This document shows positions 1-34,740 of a stretch of 64,000 nt of DNA, piece by piece. Made by a program: the position numbers and the translations under genes. The stretch comes from an uncultured Bacteroidales bacterium (lineage in GTDB: Bacteria; Bacteroidota; Bacteroidia; Bacteroidales; Paludibacteraceae), in NCBI GenBank assembly GCA_902799185.1, contig CADBZO010000004.1, positions 485 to 64,484 on the forward strand. The letters run 5' to 3'. Each line of letters starts with the position of its first letter. The first letter of the stretch is position 1. The notes under the pieces are model-generated. The model ran no database searches. It was not told where the DNA came from and was given only the letters and a program-made list of their open reading frames with translations.

Positions 1-378
1 GGCACGACCATTGATCAGATCCGCGAGGCGTGGCTCAGTATGCTGGACACGCTGCCGCAGGAGCGGCTGGACTATATCGCGTCCCTGCGGCGGAAAGGGT
101 ACAGGACCATCCTGCTCTCCAACTCCAACGAGCTCCATTGGAACCCGATATGGGAGCAGTACCGGCTGGGGGAGTATTTCGATGCGGTTTTTGCGTCCCA
201 CCATCTGCATATGGCGAAACCGAACCGGGAGATCTTCGGCCATGTGGTACGCGAGGCGCAGGTGGATAGCGCGCACACGGTCTATGTAGATGATCTGGAG
301 AAGAACCGCAAGGCGGGAGAGCAATATGCCGGATGGAAGACAGTCGCCTCTATTGAGGAATTGAGAATTGAGAATTGA
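1..378 (+). CDS. HAD-superfamily hydrolase, C-terminal part (5' end outside window)
   Basis: Frame 1 is open from base 1. Translation contains LLSNSN, MAKPN and VYVDDLEKN, resembling HAD motifs II-IV. The stop TGA (376-378) lies inside the TTGAGAA array. Confidence 0.7.
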   Translation, partial: GTTIDQIREAWLSMLDTLPQERLDYIASLRRKGYRTILLSNSNELHWNPIWEQYRLGEYFDAVFASHHLHMAKPNREIFGHVVREAQVDSAHTVYVDDLEKNRKAGEQYAGWKTVASIEELRIEN

Positions 379-425
379 GAATTGAGAATTGAGAATTGAG
401 AATTGAGAGTTGAGAATTGAGAATT
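353..425. repeat. Tandem heptamer array (TTGAGAA), about 10 copies
   Basis: Direct reading. Units at 353, 361, 368 ... 417, with two variant units (TTGAGGA, TTGAGAG). Fills the gap between the HAD gene and the next ATG (432). Confidence 0.95.
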
Positions 426-431
426 ATTACC

Positions 432-1559
432 ATGAAAGAGATACTTAGCCATTTTGCCATTCCCAACGAGACAGGCGAGCCGCAGCCTTTGCATATAGGT
501 TTTATCAACGACTCGTTCATCGTACCCGCCCGGCGCGTAGGCGAGAGGTCGTATTGCCTCCAGCGCATCAACCATCGTATCTTCAAAGACGTGAAGGGGC
601 TGATGCGCAATATAGAAACCGTCACAAACCATATCCGTGAGAAACTGCAGACCGCAGGCGTGCCGGACATTGACCGGAAGGTGCTACAACTGGTACCGAC
701 CAAAGAGGGGAAACTCGATTACCGTACAGCGGAAGGCAACTGCTGGCGGTTGTACGTACTGGTGGAACCCGCTACCTCGCAGGAGAAAGTGACCCCGCTC
801 TCCGCGGAACTGACAGGCGAAGCCTTCGGGCGGTTCCAGAAACAGTTAGCCGACCTGCCTTTCGACGCGCTATGTGAGAGTATCCCGAATTTCCATAACA
901 TGGAGTTCCGTTTGCAGCAGTTGGATGAAGCCATCATGAATGTACAAAGGGACGATGTACAATGTACAAGGGACGATGTACGATGTACGAAGGAGCGTGA
1001 ACGGTTAGAGGCGTGCGGGGAGATCATGGACGCCATCAACCAACGGCGGGAAGAGATGTGTCTTGCCGAGCGGCTCTTCCGCGAAGGAAAACTGCAGAAA
1101 CATATCAACCATTGCGACACCAAGGTCAACAATGTGCTCTTTGACGAAGCCGGCAGACCTATCTGTATCGTCGATCTGGATACCGTGATGCCGGGTTTTG
1201 TATTCTCCGACTTCGGCGATTTCATGCGTACCGCTGCGAATACGGGTCTGGAGGACGACCCCGTATTGGAGAATATACACGTGGATATGGCGGTCTTCGA
1301 GGCTTACACGCGCGGGTATTTGAAAGAGGCAACCTTCCTCACGGATCTGGAGAAAGAGCTCCTGCCCTATGGCTGCCGGCTGATGAGTTACATGCAGGCG
1401 GTGCGTTTCTTCACCGATTACATCAACGGGGACACGTATTACAAGATCGCGTACCCGGAGCATAACCTTGTGCGCACCAAGGCGCAGTTACGGCTTTTAG
1501 AAGAGCAGGAGAAGGTGGCGGAGGAGATGAAGGCGATTATCCACCGCTTAAGTAAATAA
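432..1559 (+). CDS. APH-fold phosphotransferase, N-acetylhexosamine-1-kinase (NahK)-like
   Basis: ORF with ATG at 432, after the repeat. Contains HCDTKVNNVLFD and IVDLDTV, resembling the catalytic-loop and DxD motifs of APH/NahK-type kinases. Amino-sugar gene context. Confidence 0.6.
   Translation: MKEILSHFAIPNETGEPQPLHIGFINDSFIVPARRVGERSYCLQRINHRIFKDVKGLMRNIETVTNHIREKLQTAGVPDIDRKVLQLVPTKEGKLDYRTAEGNCWRLYVLVEPATSQEKVTPLSAELTGEAFGRFQKQLADLPFDALCESIPNFHNMEFRLQQLDEAIMNVQRDDVQCTRDDVRCTKERERLEACGEIMDAINQRREEMCLAERLFREGKLQKHINHCDTKVNNVLFDEAGRPICIVDLDTVMPGFVFSDFGDFMRTAANTGLEDDPVLENIHVDMAVFEAYTRGYLKEATFLTDLEKELLPYGCRLMSYMQAVRFFTDYINGDTYYKIAYPEHNLVRTKAQLRLLEEQEKVAEEMKAIIHRLSK
939..994. repeat. In-frame heptamer array (ATGTACR / AAGGGAC units) inside the kinase CDS
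   Basis: aatgtacaaagggacgatgtacaatgtacaagggacgatgtacgatgtacgaaggag has period 7 and encodes NVQRDDVQCTRDDVRCTKE. Confidence 0.85.
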
Positions 1560-9245: not shown

Positions 9246-9315
9246 GACAGGCTGTTCATCGTCAGGAACAGTCCACAAGCCGCCTACATCTGCAGGGCTC
9301 TGAGCCTATTATGAT

Positions 9316-9370
9316 GCACTTATTGCGCACTTATGGCACACTTATCGCGCACTAATCACGCACTAATTTT
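9316..9370. repeat. Five tandem 11-bp units (GCACTWATNNC)
   Basis: Units read as gcacttattgc, gcacttatggc, acacttatcgc, gcactaatcac, gcactaatttt. Confidence 0.9.
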
Positions 9371-9596: not shown

Positions 9597-9604
9597 TAAT
9601 TTTG
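9597..9604 (+). promoter_or_regulatory. Bacteroidota -7 promoter box TAATTTTG
   Basis: Matches TAnnTTTG, 67 nt upstream of the agaS-like ATG. Confidence 0.5.
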
Positions 9605-9619: not shown

Positions 9620-9649
9620 AGTCAAAAGTCAAAAGTCGAAAGTCAAAAG
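9620..9649. repeat. Tandem heptamer array (AGTCAAA), about 4 copies, in the agaS leader
   Basis: Reads agtcaaa agtcaaa agtcgaa agtcaaa ag. Confidence 0.9.
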
Positions 9650-9670: not shown

Positions 9671-10813
9671 ATGAACAACACAGGATTTACCTTCAATGAG
9701 ATTCACCAGCAGCCGGCGATGTGGCGTAAAGAGCTAGAGGCGCTGCTGGCACAGAAAGCAGCCGTGAGTGCATTCATGCACCAGTACCTCACTTCCGAGA
9801 CCGACATCGTTCTGACCGGTGCCGGCACTTCGGCTTTCATCGGCGATGCGATAGAGCCGGTAATGCGCGGCATGTGGCGTAACGTCCGCGCCGTGCCGAC
9901 CACCGACCTGATTACTCACGCCGAGTATCTGTTAGACGCCGAGCGGCCGTTGTTGCTGATCAGTTTTGCACGTTCGGGCAACAGTCCGGAGAGCGTGGGG
10001 GCGGTGAAGCTCGCCAACAAGCTATGCAAGAACGTAGCGCATATCTATATCACCTGCAACAAGAACGGGAAACTGGCGCAGCAAGCAGTCGAAAGTCAAA
10101 AGTCTAAAGTCGAAAGCAATATTCTGCTACTCCTGTTGCCGGAGGAGACGGACGACAAGAGTCTGGCTATGACGAGCAGTTTCTCGACGATGCTGCTGAC
10201 CTGTCTCATGCTGGGGCATATTGACACGCTGGAGCAGGATAAGGAGATGATAGAGAAAGCGGTGAAGAACGCGGAAGCGGTGATAGCCGGCTATGAGGAG
10301 CAGCTCAAGGAGATAGCGAGCCGTCCGTTCGAGCGGGGTGTGTTCCTCGGGTCCGGAGCGTTGAAAGGTATCGCGGAGGAGTGCCACCTGAAGCTACAGG
10401 AGCTGACGGACGGCGCGGTAGTATGCAAGTACGACTCGTTCTTAGGTTTCCGCCACGGTCCGAAGGCCGTAGTGAACAGCAAGTCCATCGTGGTGTATCT
10501 GATGACGGACGAGGAGAAAGTGATGCGGTATGAGCGTGACTTGGTGCGTCAGGTGGACGCCAACAACAAGCCGGTGGCGCAGATCATCGTGATATCGGGC
10601 AGAAAGCCGGAGATGCCGGAGGTGAAGGCTGACTTGGTGGTGGAACTGCCGTACAGCAAGGCAGAGACCGACTTCTACGGTATCGTACCTTACGTGCTCG
10701 TAGGACAATTATTAGGATACTACGCGTCACTCGCGCACGGGCTGAATCCCGATGCACCGAGCGTGAGCGGAAACATACACCGCGTGGTGGAAGGAGTGAC
10801 CATTTACGATTGA
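9671..10813 (+). CDS. agaS: SIS-domain sugar isomerase/deaminase, AgaS-like (galactosamine-6-P to tagatose-6-P)
   Basis: The N-terminus FTFNEIHQQPAMW, LTGAGTS and SFARSGNSPES resemble the AgaS/GlmS-type double-SIS family. ATG at 9671 chosen because the longer ORF start runs through the heptamer array. Confidence 0.75.
   Translation: MNNTGFTFNEIHQQPAMWRKELEALLAQKAAVSAFMHQYLTSETDIVLTGAGTSAFIGDAIEPVMRGMWRNVRAVPTTDLITHAEYLLDAERPLLLISFARSGNSPESVGAVKLANKLCKNVAHIYITCNKNGKLAQQAVESQKSKVESNILLLLLPEETDDKSLAMTSSFSTMLLTCLMLGHIDTLEQDKEMIEKAVKNAEAVIAGYEEQLKEIASRPFERGVFLGSGALKGIAEECHLKLQELTDGAVVCKYDSFLGFRHGPKAVVNSKSIVVYLMTDEEKVMRYERDLVRQVDANNKPVAQIIVISGRKPEMPEVKADLVVELPYSKAETDFYGIVPYVLVGQLLGYYASLAHGLNPDAPSVSGNIHRVVEGVTIYD
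10087..10116. repeat. In-frame heptamer array (AGTCRAA), 4 copies, inside agaS
   Basis: agtcgaa agtcaaa agtctaa agtcgaa encodes VESQKSKVES. Same unit as the leader array at 9620-9649. Confidence 0.9.
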
Positions 10814-10835: not shown

Positions 10836-10872
10836 AATGTACGAAGGACAAATGTACGATGTACGAAGGAAA
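10836..10872. repeat. Heptamer array of the ATGTACG / AAGGAC family (intergenic)
   Basis: gaatgtacgaaggacaaatgtacgatgtacgaaggaa uses the same unit family as 939-994 and 23643-23677. Confidence 0.8.
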
Positions 10873-10922
10873 TCCGCCAAACTTGGCGGATAAAACAAAG
10901 ACAAACAAAAACAATACATTTT

Positions 10923-12161
10923 ATGGCAAAGACAGAAAATATCCTCCGTGTGATGGAGGAACGCAAAAAAGCAACAGGAGTACCGATGACGTTATTTGCG
11001 GCATGCCCGAACTCGCTGTCGGTTATCAAAGCGTCGTTCCGTGCGGCGAAACGTAATAACTCACCTATCTATTTTGCTACGACGCTGAACCAAGTGGACT
11101 GCGACGGCGGTTACACCGGCATGACACAGGCGGAGTTCACGAAGATCCTCGCCCGCGAGGCGGCAGCCGTTCATTACACGGGTCCGTACGTAGTAGCCAT
11201 CGACCACGGCGGTCCATGGCTCAAAGACAAACAGAGCATCGAGCGTTGGGACACCGAGCGCGCCATGCAGGGCGTGAAAGAGAGCTACGAGGCAGCCATT
11301 CTTGCCGGCTATGACCTGATACACGTGGACCCGACGGTAGATATTTTCCTGCCGAAAGGCGAAATCATAGACATCCACGTGGTAGTGAAACGCACGGTGG
11401 AGCTCATCAAGCACGCGGAGGATTTCCGCAAGGCGCACAACCTGCCTCCTATCTCCTATGAGGTAGGCACGGAAGAGGTACACGGCGGTCTGGCGGACGA
11501 GAAGACGTTCGACACCTTCCTGGAGGGACTGAAAGCCGGTCTGCACGAGGTGGGTCTGGACGACATATGGCCGTGCTTCATCGTCGGCAAGGTAGGCACC
11601 GACCTGCACACCACGTTCTTCGACGCCGAGGTGGCCCGCAAGCTGACGGCTAAGGTACGTCCGTACGGCAGTTATATCAAGGGTCACTATTCCGACGACG
11701 TGGACAACCCCGAGGACTACCCGAAGGCAGGCATGGGTGCTGCGAACGTAGGTCCGGAGTTCACGATGAACGAATACGAGGCATTGGCGGAACTCGAGGA
11801 AGAAGAGAAGAAACAGTTCGCGGAGGGCAAGGTTGCGCAGCTGAGCCATATGACCGAGGTGCTGTGGCAATGCGTATATGAGAGCAACCGCTGGAAGAAA
11901 TGGCTGCACGGCGAAGAGGTAGGCAAAGACCTGAAGGAGTGCACGCCGGAGCGGCAGTTATGGCTCGTGATGACCGGCTGCCGGTATATATGGCAGAAGC
12001 CGGAGGCGCTGGTAGCCCGCCAAAAGCTCTACGACAACCTGCAGCACTTAGGTATCAACGCCGAAGAGGTGGTGCTGATGCGTATCGAGCGGAACATGGA
12101 CAAATACTACCATGCGTTCAATATCGTTAATTTGAACGACTATTTGAAAGGTGAAAGGTGA
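10923..12161 (+). CDS. GatZ/KbaZ-family protein (tagatose-bisphosphate aldolase accessory subunit / tagatose-6-P 4-epimerase family)
   Basis: LFAACPNS...IYFATTLNQVD...AIDHGGPW...HVDPT pattern typical of GatZ/KbaZ. ATG at 10923 lies after the repeat. The stop TGA lies in the GAAAGGT array. Confidence 0.7.
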   Translation: MAKTENILRVMEERKKATGVPMTLFAACPNSLSVIKASFRAAKRNNSPIYFATTLNQVDCDGGYTGMTQAEFTKILAREAAAVHYTGPYVVAIDHGGPWLKDKQSIERWDTERAMQGVKESYEAAILAGYDLIHVDPTVDIFLPKGEIIDIHVVVKRTVELIKHAEDFRKAHNLPPISYEVGTEEVHGGLADEKTFDTFLEGLKAGLHEVGLDDIWPCFIVGKVGTDLHTTFFDAEVARKLTAKVRPYGSYIKGHYSDDVDNPEDYPKAGMGAANVGPEFTMNEYEALAELEEEEKKQFAEGKVAQLSHMTEVLWQCVYESNRWKKWLHGEEVGKDLKECTPERQLWLVMTGCRYIWQKPEALVARQKLYDNLQHLGINAEEVVLMRIERNMDKYYHAFNIVNLNDYLKGER

Positions 12162-12187
12162 AAGGTGAAAGGTGAAAGGTGAAAGCA
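12146..12187. repeat. Tandem heptamer array (GAAAGGT), 6 copies
   Basis: Direct reading. The array ends one base before the ATG at 12188. Confidence 0.95.
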
Positions 12188-13600
12188 ATGAAGAACACAC
12201 GGATATCCATATACGCGCTCGCGTTCCTGTTCCTCTTCGGTGCGTGCGGGTGCGAGAAGCCGAAGGCGGTAGAGGAGCCTCAGCCCAACGACTCCACCCG
12301 AGTGGAGCCGACCGAGGAGGTAATGAGCAACCCGGATCTGTCGCTCGTCAGTTATGAGATACTGGCGAACGACAACCGCGTGTGGAGCGGGAAGCCGCAG
12401 ATCACCATCCGTATCACGAACAGCAACCCGGGTGCCGTAAAATTAGGTCTGAAGGCAGTTATCACGACCGACAAGAAAGCGGCTGTGCTCACGATAGAGG
12501 ACCACGTGGTGGTGGGTTCCAAGAGTCCGAAGGATGCGGTACTGACGACCGCCGAAACGATGGAGCCCGGTATTTATCACGCCGCCTGTTCCGCTGAGGG
12601 CACCGCTCTGAGCGAGTTCAATTTTGCCATCGACCCGTTCCGGATTACCTCGGTGAATGACAAGCCGGGAGATTTCGACGCTTTCTGGCAGGCAGCGAAA
12701 GACCAGCTGGCGGGCATAGACATGCATGCGACGCTGACGGAGATCCCCGAGCGGAGCACTGCCCAATGCAAGGTCTATCTGGTGACGATGAACTCCATCC
12801 CGGACGGCACGGAAGGCGAGCCGGTGGTTATCCGCGGCTATTACTGCGAGCCGCAGGACGGCAAGAAACACCCGGTGGTCCTGCATTTCTACGGCTATGA
12901 CACCCAAGGCTATACGGGTGCTGTCGATTGTCCGTACGGCGGTACGAACGCCGAGCTGTATCTCTCCCACCGCGGCCAGTATCTCAACAACCGCCCTGCC
13001 GGCACGAACTTAGGCGTGGCGGAGGAGACGACCAATATCTACGGAGACTGGTTCCGGTATCATCTGGGCGAGAAGGAGAGTTATTACTACCGGGGTGCGT
13101 ACATGGACGCCGTGCAAGCAGTGCGGTTCATGGCCACGCGCGAGAGCAGCGACATGACGAAGCTGTTTGCCGAGGGTTCGAGCCAAGGCGGCGCGCTGAC
13201 CTACGCCTGCGCGGCACTGAGCGACTACCCCTTCACGGCTATCGCCGCCAACGTAGCGTTCATGGGCGATTTCGCAGACGCGAAAGACATCGAGAGTCTC
13301 GCCTATTGGGAGATCAGCGACCATTACTGGGTGGACGGAGTGGCTGTCGAACAGAGTCTGCAGTACCTGCCGTATTTCGACATCAAGCACCTGACACCGC
13401 GTATCTCGTGCCCCGTGCTGGCGTCAAGCGGTCTGGCGGACGACGTATGCCCGGCGAGACTGAACCTCGTGCCGTTCAACAACTTAGCCACACCGGCGGA
13501 CCAGAAGGAATACATCATCGAGCCGGAGATGGGACACAGTTTTCCCGCCGGGTGGTGGAACAAGATGAACCAATTGTTCCAATCAAAGATTGGGAGTTGA
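12188..13600 (+). CDS. Lipoprotein, acetyl-xylan-esterase/cephalosporin-C-deacetylase (CE7, AXE1)-like
   Basis: Lipobox LFLFGAC. GSSQGG nucleophile-elbow motif. YYCEP...HPVVLHFYGY resembles AXE1. Confidence 0.65.
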   Translation: MKNTRISIYALAFLFLFGACGCEKPKAVEEPQPNDSTRVEPTEEVMSNPDLSLVSYEILANDNRVWSGKPQITIRITNSNPGAVKLGLKAVITTDKKAAVLTIEDHVVVGSKSPKDAVLTTAETMEPGIYHAACSAEGTALSEFNFAIDPFRITSVNDKPGDFDAFWQAAKDQLAGIDMHATLTEIPERSTAQCKVYLVTMNSIPDGTEGEPVVIRGYYCEPQDGKKHPVVLHFYGYDTQGYTGAVDCPYGGTNAELYLSHRGQYLNNRPAGTNLGVAEETTNIYGDWFRYHLGEKESYYYRGAYMDAVQAVRFMATRESSDMTKLFAEGSSQGGALTYACAALSDYPFTAIAANVAFMGDFADAKDIESLAYWEISDHYWVDGVAVEQSLQYLPYFDIKHLTPRISCPVLASSGLADDVCPARLNLVPFNNLATPADQKEYIIEPEMGHSFPAGWWNKMNQLFQSKIGS

Positions 13601-13659
13601 TAGTTGAGAGTTGAGAGTAGTTGAAAGTTGATAGTTGATAGTTAATAGTTGATAGTTAT
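13594..13659. repeat. Tandem heptamer array (AGTTGAK), about 9 copies
   Basis: gagttga tagttga gagttga ... tagttga tagttat. Ends two bases before the ATG at 13661. Confidence 0.95.
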
Positions 13660-13660
13660 T

Positions 13661-14605
13661 ATGAAACAGTTTGATATCATAGCCTTGGGCGAGCTGAACG
13701 TGGATCTGATCCTCAACCAGATAGAGAGCGAGCCGGAGATAGGCAAGGAGAAGTTTGCCAAACAGATGACGCTGACATTGGGCAGTTCGACGGCTATCTT
13801 TGCCGCCAACGCCGCTGCGTTGGGAGCCAAAGTGGCGTTCTGCGGCATGATCGGCAATGACGCTTTCGGCGACCTGGTAGAGAGCAGTCTGAAAGCGAAA
13901 GGCGTGGACACGCGTTACCTCATCCGCCAGGACCGGTACGCCACCGGCGCGACTATCTGCATGAGTTACGACGAGGACCGCGCGAACCTGACCTACCAGG
14001 GGGCGATGGACTATATGTCCTTAGAGGACATCCATCCGGAGGTGTTCCAAGAGGCGAAGCATATCCATATATCCTCCATCTTCATGCAAAGCGGCGTGAA
14101 GCGCGACTTGATGAAGATTTTAGAGCTTTGCAAAGCCAACGGCGTGACGACCTCACTCGACACGCAGTGGGACCCCGTAGAGCAATGGGACCTGGATTAC
14201 AAACAGGTGCTGCCGCTGCTGACGGTGTTCATGCCCAACGAGACGGAGCTGAAATACCTGACGGGCAGTCAGACCCTGGAAGAGGCCATCGAGAAGATAC
14301 GTCCGTACGTCCACGCCGCCGTCATCAAATGCGGCAGCAGGGGCTCTCTGCTCCTCCGCAAAGGGCAGCCCGACCGGATGCAGGAGGCGCTGCTGAACAA
14401 GCACGTAGTCGATTGCATCGGTGCGGGTGACAGCTTCAACAGCGGTTTCATCACCCGTCTGGCGGCAGGCGACCCGTTGGACCGGTGCCAACAGTACGGC
14501 AACATGACCGGCGCGGTGAACACCACCGCTGCGGGAGGCACCACAGCGTTCACCAGCCGTGAGGACGTAGAGCGCATCGGACGCGAGCGCTTCGGATGGC
14601 AATAA
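13661..14605 (+). CDS. PfkB-family carbohydrate kinase (tagatose-6-P/ketohexose-P kinase-like)
   Basis: N-terminal IALGELNVDL and C-terminal DCIGAGDSFNSGF resemble the PfkB signatures. Confidence 0.75.
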   Translation: MKQFDIIALGELNVDLILNQIESEPEIGKEKFAKQMTLTLGSSTAIFAANAAALGAKVAFCGMIGNDAFGDLVESSLKAKGVDTRYLIRQDRYATGATICMSYDEDRANLTYQGAMDYMSLEDIHPEVFQEAKHIHISSIFMQSGVKRDLMKILELCKANGVTTSLDTQWDPVEQWDLDYKQVLPLLTVFMPNETELKYLTGSQTLEEAIEKIRPYVHAAVIKCGSRGSLLLRKGQPDRMQEALLNKHVVDCIGAGDSFNSGFITRLAAGDPLDRCQQYGNMTGAVNTTAAGGTTAFTSREDVERIGRERFGWQ

Positions 14606-17890: not shown

Positions 17891-17943
17891 CGTGCCCTCG
17901 GGCAAACCCACAAACATATATAAACCATTAAAATCTAATCATT

Positions 17944-19728
17944 ATGAGAAAAATCTTCTCTTTCCTCGCTGCGATGCTGGTAGCAGTAGTAGCGAATGCA
18001 GCGGTAGTAAACATCACCCCGGACGGAGCAACCGATCTTCGCCACGCAGTAAGGGATGTTGCCGTAGCCGGTGATACCGTCGTTCTGGCTGATGGTACTT
18101 ATACCCAAGGCGGAGACTACACGTATTTTGACAAGAACCTCGTAGTCATGGCTGCTGAGGGGGCTAACCCTGTGGTTAAGTTCACCGTTCCCGCGCAGAT
18201 CAAGGGCGGCGCAAGAGCTGAGTTTATAGGTATCAAGTTCGACATGGAGAATCTGCATGGCCAGAGTTGGTACGAACATCTGATTTACGCTACCGATGCA
18301 ACGGCTGGCAATGTGCTGGTTTTCGACGGCTGCGAGTTCTATAACGACACGTTGAACAACAGCGTCATCTATTGCAGCAGCTCAAATTTACTGGACTCTA
18401 TCATCGTCAGGGATTGTAAATTCCATGATATTATGAAGAGCTGCATCTTTGTAGAGAGTACAAGTTTCAAGGGGCTGCATATATCCAATTCTACTTTCTA
18501 CAATATATCCACCAACATCACAAGTTACTGGGCTGGTGTTGTGGACATCCGGGCTACTGGATGTGAGCTCCATGTAGATCATTGTACGTTCTATAATGTC
18601 ATCCCAATGAACACCGATTACTCCGCTGTCTCCAAAGTTGCAATCGCAAACGGTATTGTCTCCAACTGTATCTTCATGCTGCCCACAGCGCAGGACGGCA
18701 TTCGCGCTATGCGTGGCGTGACAGCGAATAACTGTATTACTTACAATTACCTGAAAGACAGCGGCACAGGTATCCATAGTTCGGTTACCAAGAACAACTG
18801 CACTCAGGTTGACCCGCTCTTCAAGGATGCTGCCAATGCTGATTTCACCCTTCTGGAGAACTCTCCGGCTTTGACGATGAATAATGGTGAGCCTATCGGA
18901 GACCTGAGATGGGTAGCATCAGAAGACCCCCAACCCGAAACCATGACCCTCTACCTCAAACTGAGTGCCGATTGGGCAGGATGGCCTGCTAAATATGCTA
19001 TCTACTATTTCAATGACGCTACCAACGGATGGTCCGATTTCATGACCGCTGTAGAGGGCGAGCAGAACGTCTATGTGGGTACTATTCCTGCTGAATATGC
19101 CGATGACAAGATCATCTTCGTTCGTCTGAACGGCGAGGCAACAGAAGCTAACTGGGATAACAAGTGGAGCCAAACGGTCGATCTGGAGATCCCGGAAGGC
19201 AAAGACTTCTTTACCGTTACTTCCGGAAGCACCGGCAGCGAGTGCAATGGTGTTTGGTCGAAGTATGGCGAGGAGTATGTTCCTGCTCTGGCTAACGGCT
19301 TCTATCTCGTAGGTACGTTCGGCGGTGTAGAGGCATGGAATTATGAAGCTTTGAGTGCTGCAAAACAGTTCAAGGAGAATGAAGAAAACGCTGGTGAGTA
19401 TAAGCTCGAATACACTTTGGCTGAAGGCGATAAGTTCAAAGTCGTTTATGTGGAGAATGATGCTATCAAGACCTGGTATCCGGATGGATCAGACAACGAC
19501 TATGTAGTAGATGCTGCTCATGCCGGCGAGAAGACTATCTATTTCAAGCCCGAATACCAAACAGACTGGAACGGATACGTGTATATTGAGGCGAATGCAG
19601 AGCCCCAACCTACCGCACTCACGAACACCACTTCTGAGACAAAGGCGGTGAAGACCCTCAAAAACGGTATCCTCGTCATCGAGAAAGCCGGGGTGAAATA
19701 CAACGTACTGGGACAAACCGTCCGCTAA
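17944..19728 (+). CDS. Secreted beta-helix protein (594 aa), paralog of the 6071-9019 N-terminal domain
   Basis: Signal peptide present. DGTYTQ...NLVVMAAEGANPVVK...DPLFKDAANADFTL...GDLRW. Shares the C-terminal tail motif. Confidence 0.75.
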   Translation: MRKIFSFLAAMLVAVVANAAVVNITPDGATDLRHAVRDVAVAGDTVVLADGTYTQGGDYTYFDKNLVVMAAEGANPVVKFTVPAQIKGGARAEFIGIKFDMENLHGQSWYEHLIYATDATAGNVLVFDGCEFYNDTLNNSVIYCSSSNLLDSIIVRDCKFHDIMKSCIFVESTSFKGLHISNSTFYNISTNITSYWAGVVDIRATGCELHVDHCTFYNVIPMNTDYSAVSKVAIANGIVSNCIFMLPTAQDGIRAMRGVTANNCITYNYLKDSGTGIHSSVTKNNCTQVDPLFKDAANADFTLLENSPALTMNNGEPIGDLRWVASEDPQPETMTLYLKLSADWAGWPAKYAIYYFNDATNGWSDFMTAVEGEQNVYVGTIPAEYADDKIIFVRLNGEATEANWDNKWSQTVDLEIPEGKDFFTVTSGSTGSECNGVWSKYGEEYVPALANGFYLVGTFGGVEAWNYEALSAAKQFKENEENAGEYKLEYTLAEGDKFKVVYVENDAIKTWYPDGSDNDYVVDAAHAGEKTIYFKPEYQTDWNGYVYIEANAEPQPTALTNTTSETKAVKTLKNGILVIEKAGVKYNVLGQTVR

Positions 19729-21981: not shown

Positions 21982-23874
21982 ATGAAACGTAATTTATTAT
22001 ATATTCTTGCGGTGGTGGCATTGATGGGATGCACGAAGCCGGAGAGTGAGCGCTTGATCTGCGCGGAAGCGGAGATGCGTGCTTTCCCGTATAACGAGAA
22101 TGGCCTGAGAGTAAGCAAATACCAGACCGTGACGGGGGTGGAGGGAGTCGAAGGGATGGAGGTCATCGAGACGTATTTCGTGAACCACGGCAAGCCGGTA
22201 ACCGTCAAGGCCTATGAGCTCTGCCGCACGGAGGTGGAGGCCCAAGACACGGTTGTCTGGTCGCTCCAGCCCTCCAGCACGAATGCCCGTCTGGACTGGG
22301 TGCTGCCCGTGACAGAAGGCTTTGCGCAACAGAACTATCTGGGCATGAACAATTCCGACTACGGCGGCGGTATCCCGCTGGTCGATCTGTGGCAGAAAGA
22401 CGGCGGCGTGGCGATAGGTCTGTTGGAACCGGTGCTGCGTATGATCTCCATGCCCGTGGAGTGGAAACGGTACGGACGGACGGTGACGATGGCGCTGAGG
22501 TACGACCTGCCCGAGCCTCGCGAACTGGCTACGGGAGACACGCTCTTCTGCTATCGCGCTTTCCGATATACCCATAAGGGCGACTATTTCAATGCCCTGC
22601 GCGCTTTCTCAGACTATATGCAGGTCCACGCAGGCATCGCGATGAAGCCCTCGGAGCCGGAGGCGTTTGAGCCGGTCTGGTGCGCCTGGGGATACGGGCG
22701 GCCGTTTAAGATGGATATGGTATTAGGCACCCTGGACAAGGTGGCGGAACTCGGGTTTACATGGGTGGATATCGACGACGGCTACCAGATAGCCGAGGGC
22801 GACTGGAACACCAACGCGTATTTCCCGGGCGGAGATGCAGACATGCGGCATATCACGGACGAGGTGCACCAACGCGGCATGAAAGCCAAGTTATGGTGGG
22901 CACCCCTGGCTGCTGACCCGGACACGAAGCTCGTGAAGGAACATCCGGAGATGTTGCTCAAAACAGCAGAACGGGCGCACGAATATATCACGTGGTGGGA
23001 CAGTTGGTATCTCTCCCCCGTCAATCCTGCGGTGGATGCCTATACGTCCGAGTTGCTGAAGATGTTCCTCGGGCGGTGGAATTTCGACGGACTGAAGATT
23101 GACGGCCAGCATCTGAACTGCTGTATGCCGGATTACAACGAAGCTTCCTGTCTGGAGAGCGCCTATGACGCGCCGGAGCAGATGCCGGGGTATTTCGGCA
23201 AGATCTATGACCAAGCCCGTGCGATGAAGCCGGATGCCGTCATTCAGGTTTGTCCGTGCGGTTGTGCGGTGAACTATTTCCTCCTTCCTCAAATCAACCA
23301 GGCGGTGGCATCCGACCCGACGAGCTCCCGGCAGGTACGTATGAAACGCAAAGCCTATGCCGCCATGGCTCCCGGTCTGGCGTATTACGGAGACCATATC
23401 GAGTTGACCGACGGAGGCGATGACTATGCTTCGCAGATCGGTACCGGTTCGGTCATCGGCACGAAATTCACCTGGCCGAAAGACAACCCCGACTGGAACG
23501 AAGGACCGTTCCTGCTGACGGAGGAGAAAGAGGCGTTGCTCCGCAAATGGATGAAGATTTATAAGGAGCACCACCTCGCCCGCGGAGAGTATCTGAACCT
23601 CTACACCTGGGGGTACGACTACCCCGAGGGCCACGTCATTAAGGTACAAGGGGACCATGTACAATGTACAAAGGACGCGCTCTATTACGCTTTCTATGCC
23701 GACGAGCCTTTTGACGGAGAGATAGAGCTGCGCGGACTGGACAAAGAGGCAACCTATACGGCGGTGGAATATACGGCGGACGTACCGCGGGAGTTTGTGG
23801 TGAAAGGTAACGCACCTGTGATACAAGTCTCCTTTGAGAAGAATTACCTTGTCAAACTAACGAAAAACAATTAA
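21982..23874 (+). CDS. Clan GH-D glycoside hydrolase (GH36/GH27-like alpha-galactosidase / alpha-N-acetylgalactosaminidase candidate)
   Basis: WCAWGYG...GFTWVDIDDGYQIAEGDWN...RGMKAKLWWAP...FDGLKIDGQ follows the melibiase-type layout. Lipoprotein-like N-terminus (VALMGC). Confidence 0.6.
   Translation: MKRNLLYILAVVALMGCTKPESERLICAEAEMRAFPYNENGLRVSKYQTVTGVEGVEGMEVIETYFVNHGKPVTVKAYELCRTEVEAQDTVVWSLQPSSTNARLDWVLPVTEGFAQQNYLGMNNSDYGGGIPLVDLWQKDGGVAIGLLEPVLRMISMPVEWKRYGRTVTMALRYDLPEPRELATGDTLFCYRAFRYTHKGDYFNALRAFSDYMQVHAGIAMKPSEPEAFEPVWCAWGYGRPFKMDMVLGTLDKVAELGFTWVDIDDGYQIAEGDWNTNAYFPGGDADMRHITDEVHQRGMKAKLWWAPLAADPDTKLVKEHPEMLLKTAERAHEYITWWDSWYLSPVNPAVDAYTSELLKMFLGRWNFDGLKIDGQHLNCCMPDYNEASCLESAYDAPEQMPGYFGKIYDQARAMKPDAVIQVCPCGCAVNYFLLPQINQAVASDPTSSRQVRMKRKAYAAMAPGLAYYGDHIELTDGGDDYASQIGTGSVIGTKFTWPKDNPDWNEGPFLLTEEKEALLRKWMKIYKEHHLARGEYLNLYTWGYDYPEGHVIKVQGDHVQCTKDALYYAFYADEPFDGEIELRGLDKEATYTAVEYTADVPREFVVKGNAPVIQVSFEKNYLVKLTKNN
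23643..23677. repeat. In-frame heptamer array (ATGTACA / AAGGGAC family) inside the GH gene
   Basis: ggtacaa ggggacc atgtaca atgtaca aaggacg encodes VQGDHVQCTKD. Confidence 0.75.
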
Positions 23875-26800: not shown

Positions 26801-26888
26801 CTCCGGTGCTAACACATTAGCCGGACTCTATAGTTCCAACTACCCCGTAGGAAGAACCTTTCAGGGAGGTATAGAGATTTCGTTCTAA
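23880..26888 (+). CDS. SusC/RagA-family TonB-dependent outer-membrane transporter
   Basis: N-terminal CarboxypepD_reg-like segment VKGSVMDADNAEPMIGVSILVKGTTTGTVTDFDGHFEL. About 1000 aa, ends with F, and is followed directly by a SusD gene. Confidence 0.9.
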   Translation: MKKFLFIFFCLMLSASAFADVRVKGSVMDADNAEPMIGVSILVKGTTTGTVTDFDGHFELSVPEKATLQLSYMGYKTIEVRAVDGMKIIMETDAQQLEEVVSLGYSAVKKAELSSAVVTVDAEKLTDVTTADVGNMLQGKIAGVQVTNAGGQPGDAAQIRIRGTGSITASSAPVYVVDGVMGGSFNPNDVETISVLKDAGSTGIYGAAAAGGVIVVTTKSGKKGSKVSVDLKGTVGGKQALFGNFRMMDSEELYNYHKTLYDPYLFADERPKSLLQQDWNWQNEFFRTGLIQNYNVAVKGGSEHVGYYASLDYFGEQGTLIGTGMQKVSGHASIKADIAKWLDMNVKVDFSKSSVSYAPSWMMMDDAFYKMPWDCPYVLDAQGNPTSEYIYIDPQHTIRSDNGEPWYSHMQWNSLQSAQYNYARSNSFDFSGVLQLNVHFTDWLHFTTTNTFNTGYSKGTESTDRRTYHDTYKTGHLSEGTGLNRSFGTTNILKGGNQWGAHSFNAMAGFEYGVWRSETSSAAGTGLPAGIDVLNASVPYSVGGYHTPGASWSAFVQASYDYGKRYFVTATYRAEASSIFAPKHRVGHFPSVAASWLISNEQFMKDQKVVSFFKLRASYGITGNNNIPPYQYLATYKLNNLYQNSVSATSSRLASPDLRWETAYMASVGIDLTFIKRIDMSIDLYQTDNTDLLLDVPVAPSTGFFKVTQNAGSVRNRGIEYRIDANIIDMRKWRWDIGFNIGFNQNRVTKTPDHLPFLQTAINVSQQVKEGQDIYSWYMKEWAGVDPANGDPLWYVVDKDGNYVLDAAGNKQTTNDYNATYARVVGSASPVFSGGLNTQLSWNGIFIHVNTNFTYGNKIYNSTREFTDADGAYIDINQMSLLHSAQGWTRWQQPGDVATHPRAELPNNTHSNDVSSRYLEDGSFFRLRNITVGYDFPAALIKKAHMTKCRIYFTADNLATATKFSGMDPEINLTSGANTLAGLYSSNYPVGRTFQGGIEISF

Positions 26889-26890
26889 TG

Positions 26891-26916
26891 GAAAGTTGAA
26901 AATTGAAAGTTGAAAG
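26891..26916. repeat. Short heptamer array (AAGTTGA / AAATTGA)
   Basis: Lies between the SusC stop and the SusD ATG. Confidence 0.8.
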
Positions 26917-26924
26917 GAGTTATT

Positions 26925-28649
26925 ATGAAAACGACTTTTGAAAATAGATTCTTTCGTACCTTGGTACTTGGTACTTTGTCCCTTTGTACTTTTTCCTGTA
27001 ATCTGGATTATTATCCCTCCGACGAGCAGAGCAGCGAGGCGATTATGAAAGACGCCTCCTCCACTATCATGGACGGCTGCTACGCGCTGATGAAGGATGA
27101 GATAGAATACCTCGGTTATCCCAGCGGAAACACTTATTGCCGTCATTGGTTCCAGATGGCGGAGTTTCCCGCCGATAACATCTGCGTCTCCGGCAAGAGT
27201 ACCGACCCCCTCTTCCAAGCCGCTACCTATACCATGACCGATAACCTCCAGAACGTAGGTACGCTCTGGATGGTAGGGTATAAAATCATCTACATGACCA
27301 ACACCCTCATCGAGTCCCTGAATGCCGTTACCCCCGAGGAACAGCAGATCTTGGGCGAAGCCTATTTCGTACGGGCGCTGGTGCACCTGAACATGGTATC
27401 GCTCTATGCCAAACCTTACTCCATGGGACGGAACAACCCGGGCGTACCACTGCGTACCTCCTCCACTTCTACGGAGGTCAAGCGTAATACCGTAGGAGAG
27501 GTCTATGACCAGATTGTCAAAGACCTGCAGCAAGCCTCTTCCCTGCTCTCTGTCGCAGGACGGACTACCAACGGCAACAAGGGCTATCCCTCCAAAGACG
27601 CAGCCCTCGGTCTTCTCTCCCGCGTGTATCTCTATATGGAGAACTACACGGAGTGCTACAAGACAGTAGAGACCATGCTCAACGGAGCGGACCCGGCTAC
27701 TAAACTGGAGGCGAACTACGCCAAGTATTTCGCAAACGCCAAATCCTCCGTGGAGACCCTCTTCTGTATCGCCCATGAGCCTACCGAAGACCGCGGACAG
27801 TCGTCCATCGGATCGATGTACAACGCCGACGGAGGCGGATGGGGAGAGATCTATCCTTCTGCGCCGTTGCTCAACCTCTACGAGCGGTATCCCTCCGATA
27901 TCCGTTACACCGAGTTCATCCGGCCGCAATACAAAGGCGACGGACCGTCCGAACGGCTCAGCGTCTATTTCCCTGCCGGCGAACCCGGCTCCGAAGAGAT
28001 GCGTAACCAGAAAGCACTGGCTGTCACCTATGACGACGCTACCGGTACCTATTCCTACAACGACGGAGGCAAACAGACCGTGGAGAAACGTATCATCAAC
28101 GGTGCCGGAGAGGCGGATCCGGACGGCGAGTATTACGAATACCACGTAACCGTGAAAGGCGAAGACCTCGTGGCGCGTATTATGCCTTCGAACATGGCTG
28201 TCCGTAACTCCCATCCGAAATATTTCATTACGAAATTCGGTTACCAGGACGGCAGCGCCACGCTCTCCTCGCCTGTCGTACTCCGCTGGGCGGAGGTGCT
28301 GCTGAACGCCGCCGAGGCGTACGCCCGCACCGGTAATGACACCAAGGCGCTGGCGCTCGTCAATGCGATCCGTACACGTGCCGGCATTCCTGACGAGGGA
28401 CTCTTCTCCGCGGCGAACATGCACGGCTATCCTTCGGCGATAGAGGTGGTCATGGACGAGAGAAGGCTCGAACTCGCTTTTGAGGGACATCGGATGTTCG
28501 ATGTTTACCGCAACAAACAAGACATGAACCGCCAATACCCGGGCTTCCAGCCATGGAAGATTATCCGCTATACCGATCCCCTCACCCAATACCCCATCCC
28601 GAATGGCGAATGGACGGTGAGCCATATAGAGCAAAACCCCGGCTATTAA
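26925..28649 (+). CDS. SusD/RagB-family nutrient-binding outer-membrane lipoprotein
   Basis: Lipobox LSLCTFSC. C-terminal ERRLELAFEGHRMFD...IPNGEW...NPGY is typical of SusD. Confidence 0.9.
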   Translation: MKTTFENRFFRTLVLGTLSLCTFSCNLDYYPSDEQSSEAIMKDASSTIMDGCYALMKDEIEYLGYPSGNTYCRHWFQMAEFPADNICVSGKSTDPLFQAATYTMTDNLQNVGTLWMVGYKIIYMTNTLIESLNAVTPEEQQILGEAYFVRALVHLNMVSLYAKPYSMGRNNPGVPLRTSSTSTEVKRNTVGEVYDQIVKDLQQASSLLSVAGRTTNGNKGYPSKDAALGLLSRVYLYMENYTECYKTVETMLNGADPATKLEANYAKYFANAKSSVETLFCIAHEPTEDRGQSSIGSMYNADGGGWGEIYPSAPLLNLYERYPSDIRYTEFIRPQYKGDGPSERLSVYFPAGEPGSEEMRNQKALAVTYDDATGTYSYNDGGKQTVEKRIINGAGEADPDGEYYEYHVTVKGEDLVARIMPSNMAVRNSHPKYFITKFGYQDGSATLSSPVVLRWAEVLLNAAEAYARTGNDTKALALVNAIRTRAGIPDEGLFSAANMHGYPSAIEVVMDERRLELAFEGHRMFDVYRNKQDMNRQYPGFQPWKIIRYTDPLTQYPIPNGEWTVSHIEQNPGY

Positions 28650-28668
28650 ATCACAAATCATAAATCAC
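28648..28668. repeat. Short heptamer array (AAATCAY), 3 copies
   Basis: aaatcac aaatcat aaatcac overlaps the SusD stop codon. Confidence 0.75.
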
Positions 28669-28687
28669 CCATTAAAATCTTACCATT

Positions 28688-29458
28688 ATGAAACTGAATT
28701 GGAAAATTGCACTCTGTGCACTGGCAACCGTAGTAATGGTTGCATGTAAAGACAAAAAGGAAGTAACCGACCCGGGTACTGACCCCGGCACACAAACGGA
28801 GGACACCACCAAACAGCAGCCTACCGACTACACCAGTCCGATCAAGATCAACGACAAGTCCATCGCCGACTGGGACAAGCTCGATCAGTCGAAAGTGGCT
28901 GTAGCCAAACTGCCCAACGACCCGCTCTACACGGCTTTGAAAGAGATCCGTGTCTATGCCGACCAGGTCTATATCAACTACATCGTGATCTTTAATCCGG
29001 AGGAGATGACAAGCCACACGCCGCTTGATGTCATGCACATCTACATGAATGCAGACAACAACGATGAGACCGGCGGTTATTTCGACCAGTTCGATGCTAT
29101 TGGACAAGGCAACACCGATCTTATGTTCGAAGGTCCGATCTGGGATGACATGGGTCTGCAGATTTCCTACAATCCTGCTGTCTCGCTTTGGGCTGGTGAG
29201 ACCAAAGGAGAAGGATGGCTCTGGGAGGAAGTGGACGCTGCCGGTACACTCGGCGCCAGCCAGTTCGTAGAGGATGGCATCATCGAGGGTCGTCTCATCA
29301 AACAGTATATCCCTTGGAAGAACTGGACGGACGCTTTCGAAATCGGCTTCGATATCCAGCAGAACTACGAGTCTGTAGGACTCCTCCCGCAAGGCAACAC
29401 CCCGGATGGAGAACTGATTGGCCGCGCCAGAAAGTTATACGTCACCTTTGACAAATAA
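28688..29458 (+). CDS. PUL-encoded surface lipoprotein of unknown function (SGBP-position)
   Basis: Lipobox VVMVAC followed by a T/D/P-rich linker. Sits directly downstream of SusD. Confidence 0.6.
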   Translation: MKLNWKIALCALATVVMVACKDKKEVTDPGTDPGTQTEDTTKQQPTDYTSPIKINDKSIADWDKLDQSKVAVAKLPNDPLYTALKEIRVYADQVYINYIVIFNPEEMTSHTPLDVMHIYMNADNNDETGGYFDQFDAIGQGNTDLMFEGPIWDDMGLQISYNPAVSLWAGETKGEGWLWEEVDAAGTLGASQFVEDGIIEGRLIKQYIPWKNWTDAFEIGFDIQQNYESVGLLPQGNTPDGELIGRARKLYVTFDK

Positions 29459-30938: not shown

Positions 30939-31811
30939 ATGAAAGATAAATTGTGGTTGCTTTTCATCCTCATCACCGTCGTCACATGGGGGGTATGGGG
31001 TGCTTTCTCCGGATACCAGATTCAGAATGGTATTCCCGATACCGTGGTCTATATCCTCTGGGCGCTGTCGATGATCCCGTGCGCCCTCGTGGCACTGGCT
31101 ATCAACAAGGGTAAGTTCCTCTGCGACGCACGTTCCGCGTTGCTCGGCTGCACCGTAGGACTCCTCGGCGCAGGAGGACAACTCGTGCTCTTCAAGGCGC
31201 TCACCCTCGGACCCAGTTATATCATCTATCCGTTTATCTCCATGTCGCCGGTAATCGTCATCACCCTCGCCGCCGTCTTCCTCAAGGAGAAAGCTACACG
31301 CTGGCAGATAGCCGGTATCGTCGTGGCGCTCATCGCAATCCTGCTCCTCTCTCTGGAGACCGGACAGGAAGGCAGCCCCGTCTCCGGATGGCTGTGGATA
31401 GTCCTCGCCGTGCTCGTGCTCTTTGCATGGGGTATTCAGGGTTTCTTCATGAAGTTTGCCAACAACTCCATGGATGCGGAGTCGATCTTCATCTGGATGG
31501 CACTCTCCGGTCTGGTACTCATCCCCGTAGCGTGGTATATGAACGGCGACGCGGCGGCTTTCTTCGCTGCCCAGGAATCGACATCCACCAGCCTCGGCTG
31601 TTTCGGTATCCAGCTCCTCAACTCCATCGGCGCACTCACCCTCGTCTATGCCTACCGTTATGGCAAGGCGGTCATCGTCTCGCCCATGGAAGGCCTCTCG
31701 CCGATGGTCACTGTACTGCTCTCGCTTGTCATTTTGGCGGTGATACCGAATCCCCTCCAGATAGCCGGCATCGCTTGCGCCGCCTTCGCCATGTACGCCC
31801 TCTCCAAATAA
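30939..31811 (+). CDS. DMT-superfamily (EamA/GRP sugar-porter-like) membrane transporter
   Basis: 290 aa with about 10 hydrophobic segments. The start is 1 nt after the upstream stop. Confidence 0.55.
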   Translation: MKDKLWLLFILITVVTWGVWGAFSGYQIQNGIPDTVVYILWALSMIPCALVALAINKGKFLCDARSALLGCTVGLLGAGGQLVLFKALTLGPSYIIYPFISMSPVIVITLAAVFLKEKATRWQIAGIVVALIAILLLSLETGQEGSPVSGWLWIVLAVLVLFAWGIQGFFMKFANNSMDAESIFIWMALSGLVLIPVAWYMNGDAAAFFAAQESTSTSLGCFGIQLLNSIGALTLVYAYRYGKAVIVSPMEGLSPMVTVLLSLVILAVIPNPLQIAGIACAAFAMYALSK

Positions 31812-31812
31812 C

Positions 31813-31860
31813 CCCCGCATCGACCATGCATAAACCCCGCATCGACCATGCATGGTCGAT
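31813..31860. repeat. 22-bp direct duplication ending in a perfect 20-bp palindrome
   Basis: ccccgcatcgaccatgcat occurs twice. atcgaccatg/catggtcgat lies at 31841-31860. Confidence 0.85.
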
Positions 31861-34059: not shown

Positions 34060-34086
34060 TCGGTAAAAACGATTAAATTCTTCTTC

Positions 34087-34719: not shown

Positions 34720-34740
34720 CACTGAATTACGTGTCAATCC

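Follow-up and report, generated by a model that had tools for sequence, protein, structure and literature searches.

Heptanucleotide tandem arrays at the operon junctions of an uncultured rumen Bacteroidales: a lineage-rich case of a described class of bacterial microsatellites

Results

Heptamer arrays and the genes that carry them

The window, that is, the entire stretch of 64,000 nucleotides (nt) analysed here, belongs to ENA scaffold STEW19-1 scaffold_92, comes from an uncultured rumen Bacteroidales ('Paludibacteraceae') and carries a series of tandem arrays built from units of 7 nt. The genes that bear them form a sugar-utilisation cluster typical of Bacteroidota, comprising, according to Pfam, a HAD hydrolase, an APH-family kinase, an SIS-domain (AgaS-like) protein, a GatZ/KbaZ-like protein, an AXE1 esterase, a PfkB kinase and SusC/SusD. 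Arrays were detected with Tandem Repeats Finder (TRF) and by direct reading of the sequence, and 100 order-3 Markov shuffles of the window served as the baseline for enrichment. Against this baseline, period 7 is strongly enriched, both at a score of at least 30 (14 observed versus 1.1 expected) and at a score of at least 45 (7 observed versus 0 expected); periods 10 and 11 are likewise in excess, and periods 8 and 9 show no excess over the same shuffles. The units stand head-to-tail in arrays longer than expected by chance, as is characteristic of long simple sequence repeats (SSRs) with units of 5-11 nt.

The six period-7 arrays listed in an initial annotation of this DNA were all recovered at their coordinates by TRF and direct reading. 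They are joined here by heptamer arrays that the annotation did not mention, located within coding sequences (CDSs) at 939-993, 10087-10116, 23657-23671 and 26960-26996, and in an intergenic region at 10852-10866. The arrays and the blocks that contain them are as follows.

352-425, plus strand: (AATTGAG)x10.4 with 95% matches, filling the junction from the HAD-hydrolase to the APH-family kinase gene (TRF, Pfam).
About 939-996, plus strand: heptamer block of ATGTACR / AAGGGAC units, in frame within the kinase CDS 432-1559 (TRF, repeat family D7).
9620-9649, plus strand: (AGTCAAA)x4.3, preceding the SIS-domain (AgaS-like) gene (ATG 9671) in its 5' leader (TRF, direct reading).
10087-10116, plus strand: (AGTCRAA)x4.3, inserted in frame into an AgaS loop (TRF, repeat family D19).
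10836-10870, plus strand (array 10852-10866): ATGTACG/AAGGAC heptamer block in the intergenic spacer from agaS to gatZ (repeat family D7).
12145-12187, plus strand: (TGAAAGG)x6, 5.9 copies over 12145-12185 by TRF with 100% matches, filling the junction from gatZ to the AXE1-esterase gene (TRF).
13594-13659, plus strand: (AGTTGAK)x8.6, over 13595-13657 by TRF, with 79% matches and indels, filling the junction from the AXE1 to the PfkB-kinase gene (TRF).
23636-23677, plus strand (array 23657-23671): dispersed copy of the heptamer block, in frame within the melibiase-like glycosidase CDS 21982-23874 (repeat family D7).
26887-26916, plus strand: (AAGTTGA-like)x3.7, over 26891-26916 by TRF, at the junction from SusC (stop TAA 26886-26888) to SusD (ATG 26925) (TRF).
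About 26959-26996, minus strand: GTAC-type heptamer block in reverse orientation, period 7, 4.6 copies (TRF, repeat I6).
28648-28668, plus strand: (AAATCAY)x3, between the SusD stop 28647-28649 and ATG 28688 (TRF score 35, weak on its own).

Five of the six arrays first listed lie between an upstream stop and the next ATG on the same strand, the remaining one (9620-9649) being situated in the agaS leader, just as the initial annotation described. Its observation that two CDSs end on a TGA supplied by the array itself is likewise correct for the HAD gene (376-378) and for gatZ (12159-12161, GatZ being 3 residues longer), and the AXE1 gene provides a third such case at 13598-13600. The first array ends 6 nt before ATG 432, and that in front of the PfkB-kinase gene reaches ATG 13661. 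Just upstream of the agaS-leader array, direct reading identifies a promoter-type box of the Bacteroidetes TAnnTTTG pattern, TAATTTTG, at 9597-9604; the unit of the array is reused by the insert in the AgaS loop, 467 nt downstream of it, and in a related genome, L001, the leader array has the same copy number and 4 substitutions.

The array at 10852-10866 is intergenic because the true start of gatZ, as judged from its orthologues, is ATG 10923 (MAKTENILRVME) and not the longest-ORF (open reading frame) start ATG 10833, which falls inside the heptamer block; a small hairpin (10873-10888) follows this block directly. The block in the glycosidase gene is 88% identical to 934-975 and has 1 mismatch in 32 nt to a block in agaS of L001, and the reversed block at 26959-26996, which codes for the hydrophobic core of the signal peptide of the SusD lipoprotein, is 79% complementary to 939-972. 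The AAATCAY unit found downstream of SusD also occurs at other junctions in the relatives L031, L038 and L042. With Rfam 15 at gathering score, the only matches in the window are tmRNA (33671-34061) and tRNA (34277-34349), and none coincides with an array.

Occurrence in relatives and in independent assemblies

For comparison, a scan with GatZ yielded 80 orthologous loci from distinct species (GatZ 79-100% identical, 1.4 Mb). Genes were called as longest ORFs from the first in-frame ATG, with no trained gene finder; by this call, 92% of the DNA is coding. As in the window, 7 nt is the commonest period of tandem repeats in these loci, which contain 145 arrays with 82 distinct units (1.46 Mb); at a TRF score of at least 40, the numbers of rows are 4 for period 6, 119 for period 7, 46 for period 8, 41 for period 9, 83 for period 11 and 43 for period 14. 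The density amounts to 9-13 arrays per 100 kb in rumen and non-rumen gut members alike, and a 50-kb control from E. coli contains no period-7 array at a score of at least 36.

Similar arrays are present in metagenome-assembled genomes (MAGs) of many separate projects. Assembly artefact, which the initial annotation had named as a way in which its proposal could fail, is ruled out by assemblies from four other samples or pipelines (ENA ERZ27280626, ERZ1029111 and ERZ1029116, and Logan ERR3201386), all of which keep the arrays unchanged. In short-k assemblies (Logan, k87 MEGAHIT), the contigs L084, L088 and L094 start or end exactly at arrays (window positions 13620s, 940 and 26924).

The second commonest class of repeats in the clade has period 11 (and 22), with 83 TRF rows, 12 of them at contig ends; in the window, such repeats are found at 9309-9368, 31808-31853, 34740-34773 and 36863-36911. 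Unlike the heptamers, period-11 arrays lie at a median of 190 nt from the start codon, and they are probably a different kind of element.

Anatomy of the junctions

Same-strand junctions hold 45 of 71 period-7 arrays; a further 16 fall within called genes, 4 within divergent spacers and 3 within convergent ones. The arrays are hence predominantly intergenic although ~92% of the DNA is coding, and the genic ones preserve the reading frame. The positional regularity is stronger than the initial annotation had perceived: the 45 same-strand junction arrays start at a median of 2 nt inside the upstream stop codon and end at a median of 6 nt before the ATG (interquartile range 3-12). Same-strand spacers have a median length of 55 nt with a heptamer array versus 27 nt without, and 34% of the array-free ones measure 15 nt or less; an array thus turns a compact or overlapping junction into a spacer of 35-100 nt.

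The junctions also contain other elements. Hairpin-forming repeats are present in the agaS to gatZ and gatZ to AXE1 junctions of L010, L013, L016, L021, L028, L031, L034, L041, L047 and L054, some of them as tandem units of 23-37 nt, with the pattern GACCGCTNCGCTCAAAGANAAAAG ... CTTTGAG ... CGGTC followed by T-rich heptamer-like tails (CTTTCGA CTTTTGA), and also as ATCGCCCAAGATTGGTCGAT. These elements resemble repetitive extragenic palindromic (REP) sequences or terminators, and the AAAGTCG/AAAGACA unit family may stem from them. Start-proximal leader segments common to different genes also seem to occur: a 36-nt leader ending in CCATTAAAATCTNANCATTATGA is 83% identical at 17912-17947 and 28656-28691, in front of two unrelated genes, and the leader end GTTATTATG recurs at 13652-13663 and 26917-26927. 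Among the gut members from outside the rumen (L060-L079, as compared with L001-L059), pfkB comes directly after gatZ at a compact junction; only the rumen group has the AXE1 esterase gene between the two, and this gene was therefore inserted into the operon.

Composition, start codons and stop codons

The junction arrays have a sense-strand composition of A.445, T.32, G.14 and C.09, versus A.35, T.29, G.17 and C.195 in array-free spacers, and A exceeds T on the sense strand in 30 arrays versus 12. AUG is depleted, being found in only one of the 45 sense units when 6.6 are expected (p =.003), and its antisense equivalent shows no depletion. A gene-caller artefact due to the use of the first in-frame ATG was considered as a cause and rejected: with a selection independent of the called start, AUG is still depleted at the level of arrays (5 of 97 versus 14.1, p =.002). 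The profile of the start context peaks for A at -14/-13, favours A at -3 and T at -1, and is low in G; it is equal with and without arrays, and agrees with the initiation region of Bacteroidetes reported by Baez et al. 2019 (PMC6847099).

Leaders with an array fold less strongly than those without (mean minimum free energy (MFE) -3.25 versus -5.03 kcal/mol, p =.004), a difference explained by their lower GC content, since the deviation from their own shuffles is 0.13 versus 0.16. The suggestion in the initial annotation that the arrays provide unstructured leaders for initiation without Shine-Dalgarno pairing is thus supported in part: composition, AUG depletion and start context are consistent with it, but the arrays are as structured as their own shuffles.

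It had also been proposed that the arrays supply stops in every reading frame. This is the case for four of the six first listed; the AGTCAAA unit, however, contains no stop, and AAATCAY closes one frame only. Stops in all three frames are provided by 28 of the 45 junction arrays in the sense and by 22 in the antisense direction. When the letters of the units are shuffled, 35 of 45 sense units with a stop compare with 31.3 expected (p = 0.08) and a total of 42 sense stops with 36.2 expected (p = 0.05); six junction arrays and the agaS-leader array of the window are free of stops. Since the excess over composition is marginal and the antisense strand is nearly as rich in stops, we regard the three-frame stops as resulting mostly from AT-rich composition and from the seeding of arrays at a stop codon.

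Turnover between genomes and local origin

The DNA of the window, of L001 and of a further relative, L085, is ~95% identical, and the arrays nevertheless differ in unit and copy number at the junctions from AXE1 to pfkB and from gatZ to AXE1:

gatZ to AXE1: window, (TGAAAGG)x6; L001, AGTCGAA AGCAAAA AGTCGAA; L085, (AGTCGAA)x3 AGCAAAA.
AXE1 to pfkB: window, (AGTTGAK)x9; L001, none; L085, (AATTACG)x8.
agaS to gatZ: window and L001, the same 109-nt spacer, counted as non-repetitive in this comparison; L085, (AATTAAA)x5 and (AATTACG)x7.

Alleles of the AGTCGAA/AGCAAAA type at the gatZ to AXE1 junction range from 3 to ~12 units in L001, L085, L007 and L008, and length differences correspond to whole units, as exemplified by the 7 nt that separate L085 from L001 at this junction and by the block within the kinase gene (939-996), which in L001 is shorter by exactly 21 nt, or 3 units. 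In many species, gatZ and AXE1 are separated by nothing more than the compact junction CTGAAATGAAA, in which stop and start overlap, and in most species AXE1 and pfkB meet in a compact ATGTAAT-ATG junction; for the three junctions compared, arrays at orthologous positions in other species consist of unrelated units.

At closer distance, the arrays are stable. A strain with 99.15% identity (37 substitutions and 0 gaps in 4355 nt) has equal copy numbers at all three short arrays covered; array 26887-26916 is unchanged in this strain, and array 28648-28668 has a single substitution and equal length in L093. Copy numbers are identical across six near-identical or 99.15%-identical assemblies. A search for copy-number variants within the species gave one contig of ~95% identity in the metagenome scan and, by look-ups of exact proteins, mostly the same strain and one 99.15% relative, the look-up of the kinase returning no record. 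Turnover is therefore fast on the species scale and, since copy number at the three short arrays covered is identical at 99.15% identity, appears much slower than that of classical contingency or phase-variable loci.

For one array the starting material can be recognized. The C-terminus S-I-E-E-L of the HAD hydrolase is encoded by ATTGAGGAATTGAR, which already constitutes a 7-nt proto-repeat (ATTGAGG|AATTGAR); it is expanded to ten units in the window and, independently, to (TTGAAGA)x3 in L032, and it stands as five degenerate units in L001. This comparison of sequences shows that array 352-425 grew from the I-E-E-L codons of the HAD gene itself.

In-frame inserts, unit families and dispersed blocks

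About 10 of the 80 species carry in-frame heptamer inserts in the same loop of AgaS, with differing units (AGTCRAA, the ATGTACA/AGGGGAC block, GCYAAGA and GGCGAAW), and most orthologues have none. L001 has the ATGTACA/AGGGGAC block where the window has AGTCRAA units, and the insert of L029 bears a hairpin nested in the array. Similarly, a protein of ~770 residues has an array at one linker position in five species, with five different units. Heptamer arrays within CDSs are always in frame and affect loops, linkers and a signal peptide.

Units at sites more than 1 kb apart agree within one mismatch for 18.8% of pairs from the same genome, versus 7.1% from different genomes and 4.3% for a letter-shuffled control; the same-genome count of 31 compares with 11.75 expected (p < 2e-4). 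In addition, composite blocks recur at unrelated sites. The block GTACAAGGGGAC.ATGTACAATGTACAAAGGA is found in the kinase gene, the agaS to gatZ spacer, the glycosidase gene, the SusD signal peptide (reversed) and the AgaS loop of L001, with 0 matches for 20 shuffled patterns, and a block of at least 50 nt with a AAGTCGTCTAG interruption occurs between agaS and gatZ in L024 and between gatZ and AXE1 in L044/L046. The simplest process to add to slippage is template switching or ectopic recombination among arrays. Neither a transposase nor a REP-associated tyrosine transposase (RAYT) nor a reverse transcriptase is found near the arrays among the annotated window ORFs, and the weak folding of the array leaders, which equals that of shuffles, likewise sets the arrays apart from REP, REPIN and MITE (miniature inverted-repeat transposable element) families.

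Other features of the window

After the tmRNA and tRNA genes, a defence island of low GC content (0.33-0.46) extends from ~35350 to 58000. It encodes a Schlafen/AlbA_2 + HATPase_c_4 protein, DUF2971, an FRG protein, HsdR fused to an S24 peptidase domain, RhuM, an HNH protein and Abi_2, as well as a type I restriction-modification system in which HsdM is followed by a tyrosine integrase beside two HsdS genes. The two HsdS genes share repeats of 133 nt and 74 nt and, as judged from this arrangement with the integrase, are likely to form an hsdS shufflon. Direct repeats of 297 nt with 94% identity lie at 48803-49099 and 58820-59116. Finally, arrays with a 10-nt unit (ACAATTAAAG), direct and inverted, at 60929-61110 and 61604-61703 flank a gene of the PD-(D/E)XK_3 family (61112-61588, minus strand, 158 residues), with flanking arms of 30-64 nt that are 70-80% complementary; they look like a bounded cassette or a set of operators or iterons, and are unrelated to the heptamers.

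Discussion

Our finding that the period-7 arrays share unit length, position and A-richness, and not sequence, upholds the way in which the initial annotation delimited them. Its statement that no described class has these properties does not hold, in that both heptanucleotide long SSRs and start-proximal heptamer arrays are already on record (PMC4679880, PMC4692102); the arrays are a lineage-rich case of a described class, the bacterial heptanucleotide microsatellites, rather than a new class. According to the summaries of Mrázek et al. 2007 given in these two papers, heptanucleotides are the commonest long SSRs of 5-11 nt in prokaryotes, and the one proposal recorded there for a length of 7 nt is the stretch of DNA held by the replicative polymerase. 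The long SSRs so summarised share with ours (i) the head-to-tail arrangement of 7-nt units, (ii) a mostly intergenic location, (iii) occurrence in non-pathogens, (iv) variation in length and sequence between close relatives, and (v) a presumed origin by slippage. Our arrays differ in that they come from rumen and gut 'Paludibacteraceae' MAGs outside the surveys as summarised, are tied to the stop-to-start junctions of operons with filters that fit Shine-Dalgarno-less initiation, and include frequent in-frame coding inserts and genome-specific unit families, which are absent from the summarised description.

A second precedent is provided by MacGregor 2015, who described forward-oriented TAACTGA arrays located a few nt upstream of starts in Beggiatoaceae, in cyanobacteria and in five Bacteroidetes, Paludibacter propionicigenes among them, with shorter intergenic regions in repeat-free relatives, and who suggested binding of S1, Csp or CsrA (PMC4679880). 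The start-proximal forward placement (median 6 nt, as is found here), the rarity of copies in ORFs and the lack of a canonical ribosome-binding site are common to both systems. There, however, one unit dominates and related heptamers are rarely repeated, whereas here 145 arrays comprise 82 units, and tandem TAACTGA is found neither in the window nor in 82 sources. Moreover, horizontal spread was proposed for the TAACTGA repeats, in contrast to the local birth from native sequence that one of our arrays exhibits.

Heptanucleotide repeats of cyanobacteria, the short tandemly repeated repetitive (STRR) sequences, were reportedly seen by Mazel as early as 1990. G-rich intergenic heptamers (GGGAATC / GGGGATT) that vary strongly between close relatives were described in Xanthomonas and Nostoc by Rehm 2015 (PMC4692102). 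These repeats resemble ours as variable intergenic tandem heptamers, located in one case within an operon (pecE-pecF) and sometimes forming inverted pairs, and differ in being G/C-rich and quadruplex-capable, whereas the present arrays are A/T-rich, G/C-poor and predicted to be unstructured. Neither the units of STRR1-3 (CCCCAGT, TTGGTCA, CAACAGT) nor the G-rich units occur in tandem here, and the host is a member of the Bacteroidales and not a cyanobacterium.

The small dispersed repeats (SDR) of Nostoc (Elhai 2008, cited in PMC3116915), which are reportedly often nested in heptamer arrays, offer a lead rather than a test. Rickettsia palindromic elements, in turn, are in-frame insertions in coding regions. 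As with both of these, the composite blocks described here are very short, reach many unrelated sites and enter CDSs with the frame kept, and the hairpin of L029 is nested in a similar fashion; unlike them, they are built from heptamers, contain no palindrome, are few, and have no mobilising enzyme in view.

Based on the evidence collected so far, we think it rather likely that the arrays are slippage-born heptanucleotide microsatellites, occasionally copied between sites, that survive where they are harmless and that are filtered, when located in junctions, as ordinary Shine-Dalgarno-less leaders. They would arise by slipped-strand mispairing of short native proto-repeats and, now and then, from the copy of an existing block at another site. 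They persist only where extra sequence does no harm, i.e., in same-strand stop-to-start gaps, in 5' leaders and, where the added length is a multiple of 3 nt, in the loops, linkers and signal peptides of proteins. A junction array would be transcribed within the operon mRNA and become the ribosome-loading leader of the downstream gene, and selection would therefore filter its sequence towards the look of a normal leader, that is, rich in A/U and poor in G/C, with no AUG and little structure, and with the usual A at -13/-14 and -3. The longer spacer would probably also loosen translational coupling and mildly tune the downstream cistron. The compact orthologous junctions of many species and the in-frame protein inserts with differing units both speak for this view.

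Several observations weigh against a microsatellite origin of this kind, or limit its reach. It leaves unexplained why 7 nt is so sharply preferred to 6 or 8 nt, a purely neutral model does not predict that arrays hug the start codon, and divergent (promoter) spacers are depleted of arrays (4 of 52 intergenic arrays versus 28% of intergenic bases). AUG depletion is weaker when only distinct units are counted (5 of 65 versus 9.0, p =.08), and all loci surround one syntenic operon, with only 12-24 independent junction clusters. Furthermore, local slippage alone explains neither the units favoured by individual genomes nor the composite blocks of 32-50 nt at unrelated sites.

Other explanations are taken here in descending order of probability. 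It is doubtful that the arrays are active translational enhancers or platforms, in which each 7-nt unit binds one OB-fold of bS1 or of a cold-shock protein and thereby recruits or positions the 30S subunit without Shine-Dalgarno pairing. The short distance to the ATG, when compared with period-11 arrays, and the A/U-rich, AUG-free composition would suit such a platform, as would the literature, according to which B. subtilis CspB binds with one protein per heptamer unit and bS1 is placed near -12/-13 (PMC4679880, PMC6847099). Strong arrays also appeared to be in register with the ATG (p < 1/3000 when all arrays are taken, p =.003 for 12 junction clusters), 68-74% having A at -6/-13/-20 and 57-62% having T at -2/-9, but the register is lost in the wider set with a score of at least 30 (23 clusters, p =.23) and among 19 independent weaker arrays (p =.19, with a flat histogram of best shifts). 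Moreover, the units, 82 in 145 arrays, have no common motif, the same unit families occur within CDSs and in reverse orientation, and many orthologous genes with compact junctions do without arrays.

We are more doubtful still about a combined reading, in which the arrays would constitute a self-propagating class of sequence whose blocks are copied by a templated mechanism, giving rise to the unit families that each genome has as its own, and are kept near starts as a landing pad for bS1, 7 nt corresponding to the footprint of one OB-fold. If true, this would represent a lineage-specific way to build and diversify translation-initiation regions and protein linkers.

The initial annotation had also considered that the arrays might be slipped-strand contingency tracts. 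In such tracts, or 'tuning knobs', frequent gain or loss of units would alter intercistronic spacing or, within genes, the frame and, in turn, give rise to heritable and reversible variation in the expression of sugar-utilisation genes. Such a role has a precedent in the 7-bp tandem repeats between promoter and start of Haemophilus influenzae hmw1A/hmw2A, whose number affects expression and varies in clonal populations. It is consistent with the differences in unit and copy number at ~95% average nucleotide identity (ANI; 3 to ~12 units between gatZ and AXE1, 9/0/8 units between AXE1 and pfkB), with the presence of several arrays next to genes of SusC/SusD surface proteins, and with the three short-k assemblies that break exactly at arrays, which could reflect heterogeneity. 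However, the strain with 99.15% ANI, identical at the three short arrays that it covers, and the five other, likewise identical assemblies make it improbable. Contig breaks are equally expected for any repeat longer than k, the affected genes encode mostly cytoplasmic catabolic enzymes, and arrays in CDSs are present only in intact frames. In contrast to the hmw repeats, the short arrays here do not change at this identity and are located mostly between the cistrons of catabolic operons.

Even less probable is a mobile or copy-paste element, in which a templated process, be it ectopic gene conversion, an enzyme or microhomology-mediated template switching, would write blocks into new sites and dispersal would be the main source of arrays. 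The presence of the block GTACAAGGGGAC.ATGTACAATGTACAAAGGA, together with a common non-periodic 5' flank, at no fewer than five unrelated sites of the window and L001, the exchange of block and AGTCRAA units in the AgaS loop, the interrupted block at different junctions of L024 and L044/L046, the genome-specific unit families and the nested hairpin of L029 all argue for copying. Growth of array 353-425 from local coding sequence, evident from the proto-repeat in the HAD gene, argues against it, as does the confinement of block families to close relatives; the blocks are not delimited by any hairpin, terminal inverted repeat or target-site duplication, the surroundings of the window arrays reveal no transposase, RAYT or reverse transcriptase, and ordinary recombination between similar arrays could yield the same pattern. 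Finally, selection for frame-independent stop-codon insulators, as put forward in the initial annotation on the grounds that 7 is coprime to 3 and that a stop-bearing unit would end ribosomes in any frame before the next cistron, is very unlikely: despite the three CDSs that end on an array TGA and the stop counts given above, it finds no support beyond composition, arrays often start on a native stop codon, which in itself biases units towards stops, the stop-free units are those also able to live inside genes, and there is no good evidence for arrays as purpose-built insulators.

What heptanucleotide repeats do in bacteria has been an open question ever since their sighting in cyanobacteria in 1990 and their recognition as the commonest class of long SSRs in 2007, and Rehm et al. 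2015 state that there is no detailed literature on them (PMC4692102). The 'Paludibacteraceae' offer an unusually clean comparative system in this respect, in which one operon junction can be followed through 80 species, some with an array and some without, in a phylum with ribosomes that ignore Shine-Dalgarno sequences. The arrays reveal what selection allows between stop and start, namely AUG-free, A/U-rich sequence. Beyond the junctions, arrays reshape protein loops in frame and, by moving stop codons, alter C-termini, as is the case for the 3 additional residues of GatZ and for the last residues of the HAD hydrolase, which are array-encoded. There are also practical consequences: ATG-bearing arrays mislead the calling of start codons (10833 versus 10923 for gatZ), and heptamer arrays fragment short-k metagenome assemblies of this group. 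At the same time, the arrays are candidate high-resolution strain markers for an abundant and uncultured group of rumen bacteria.

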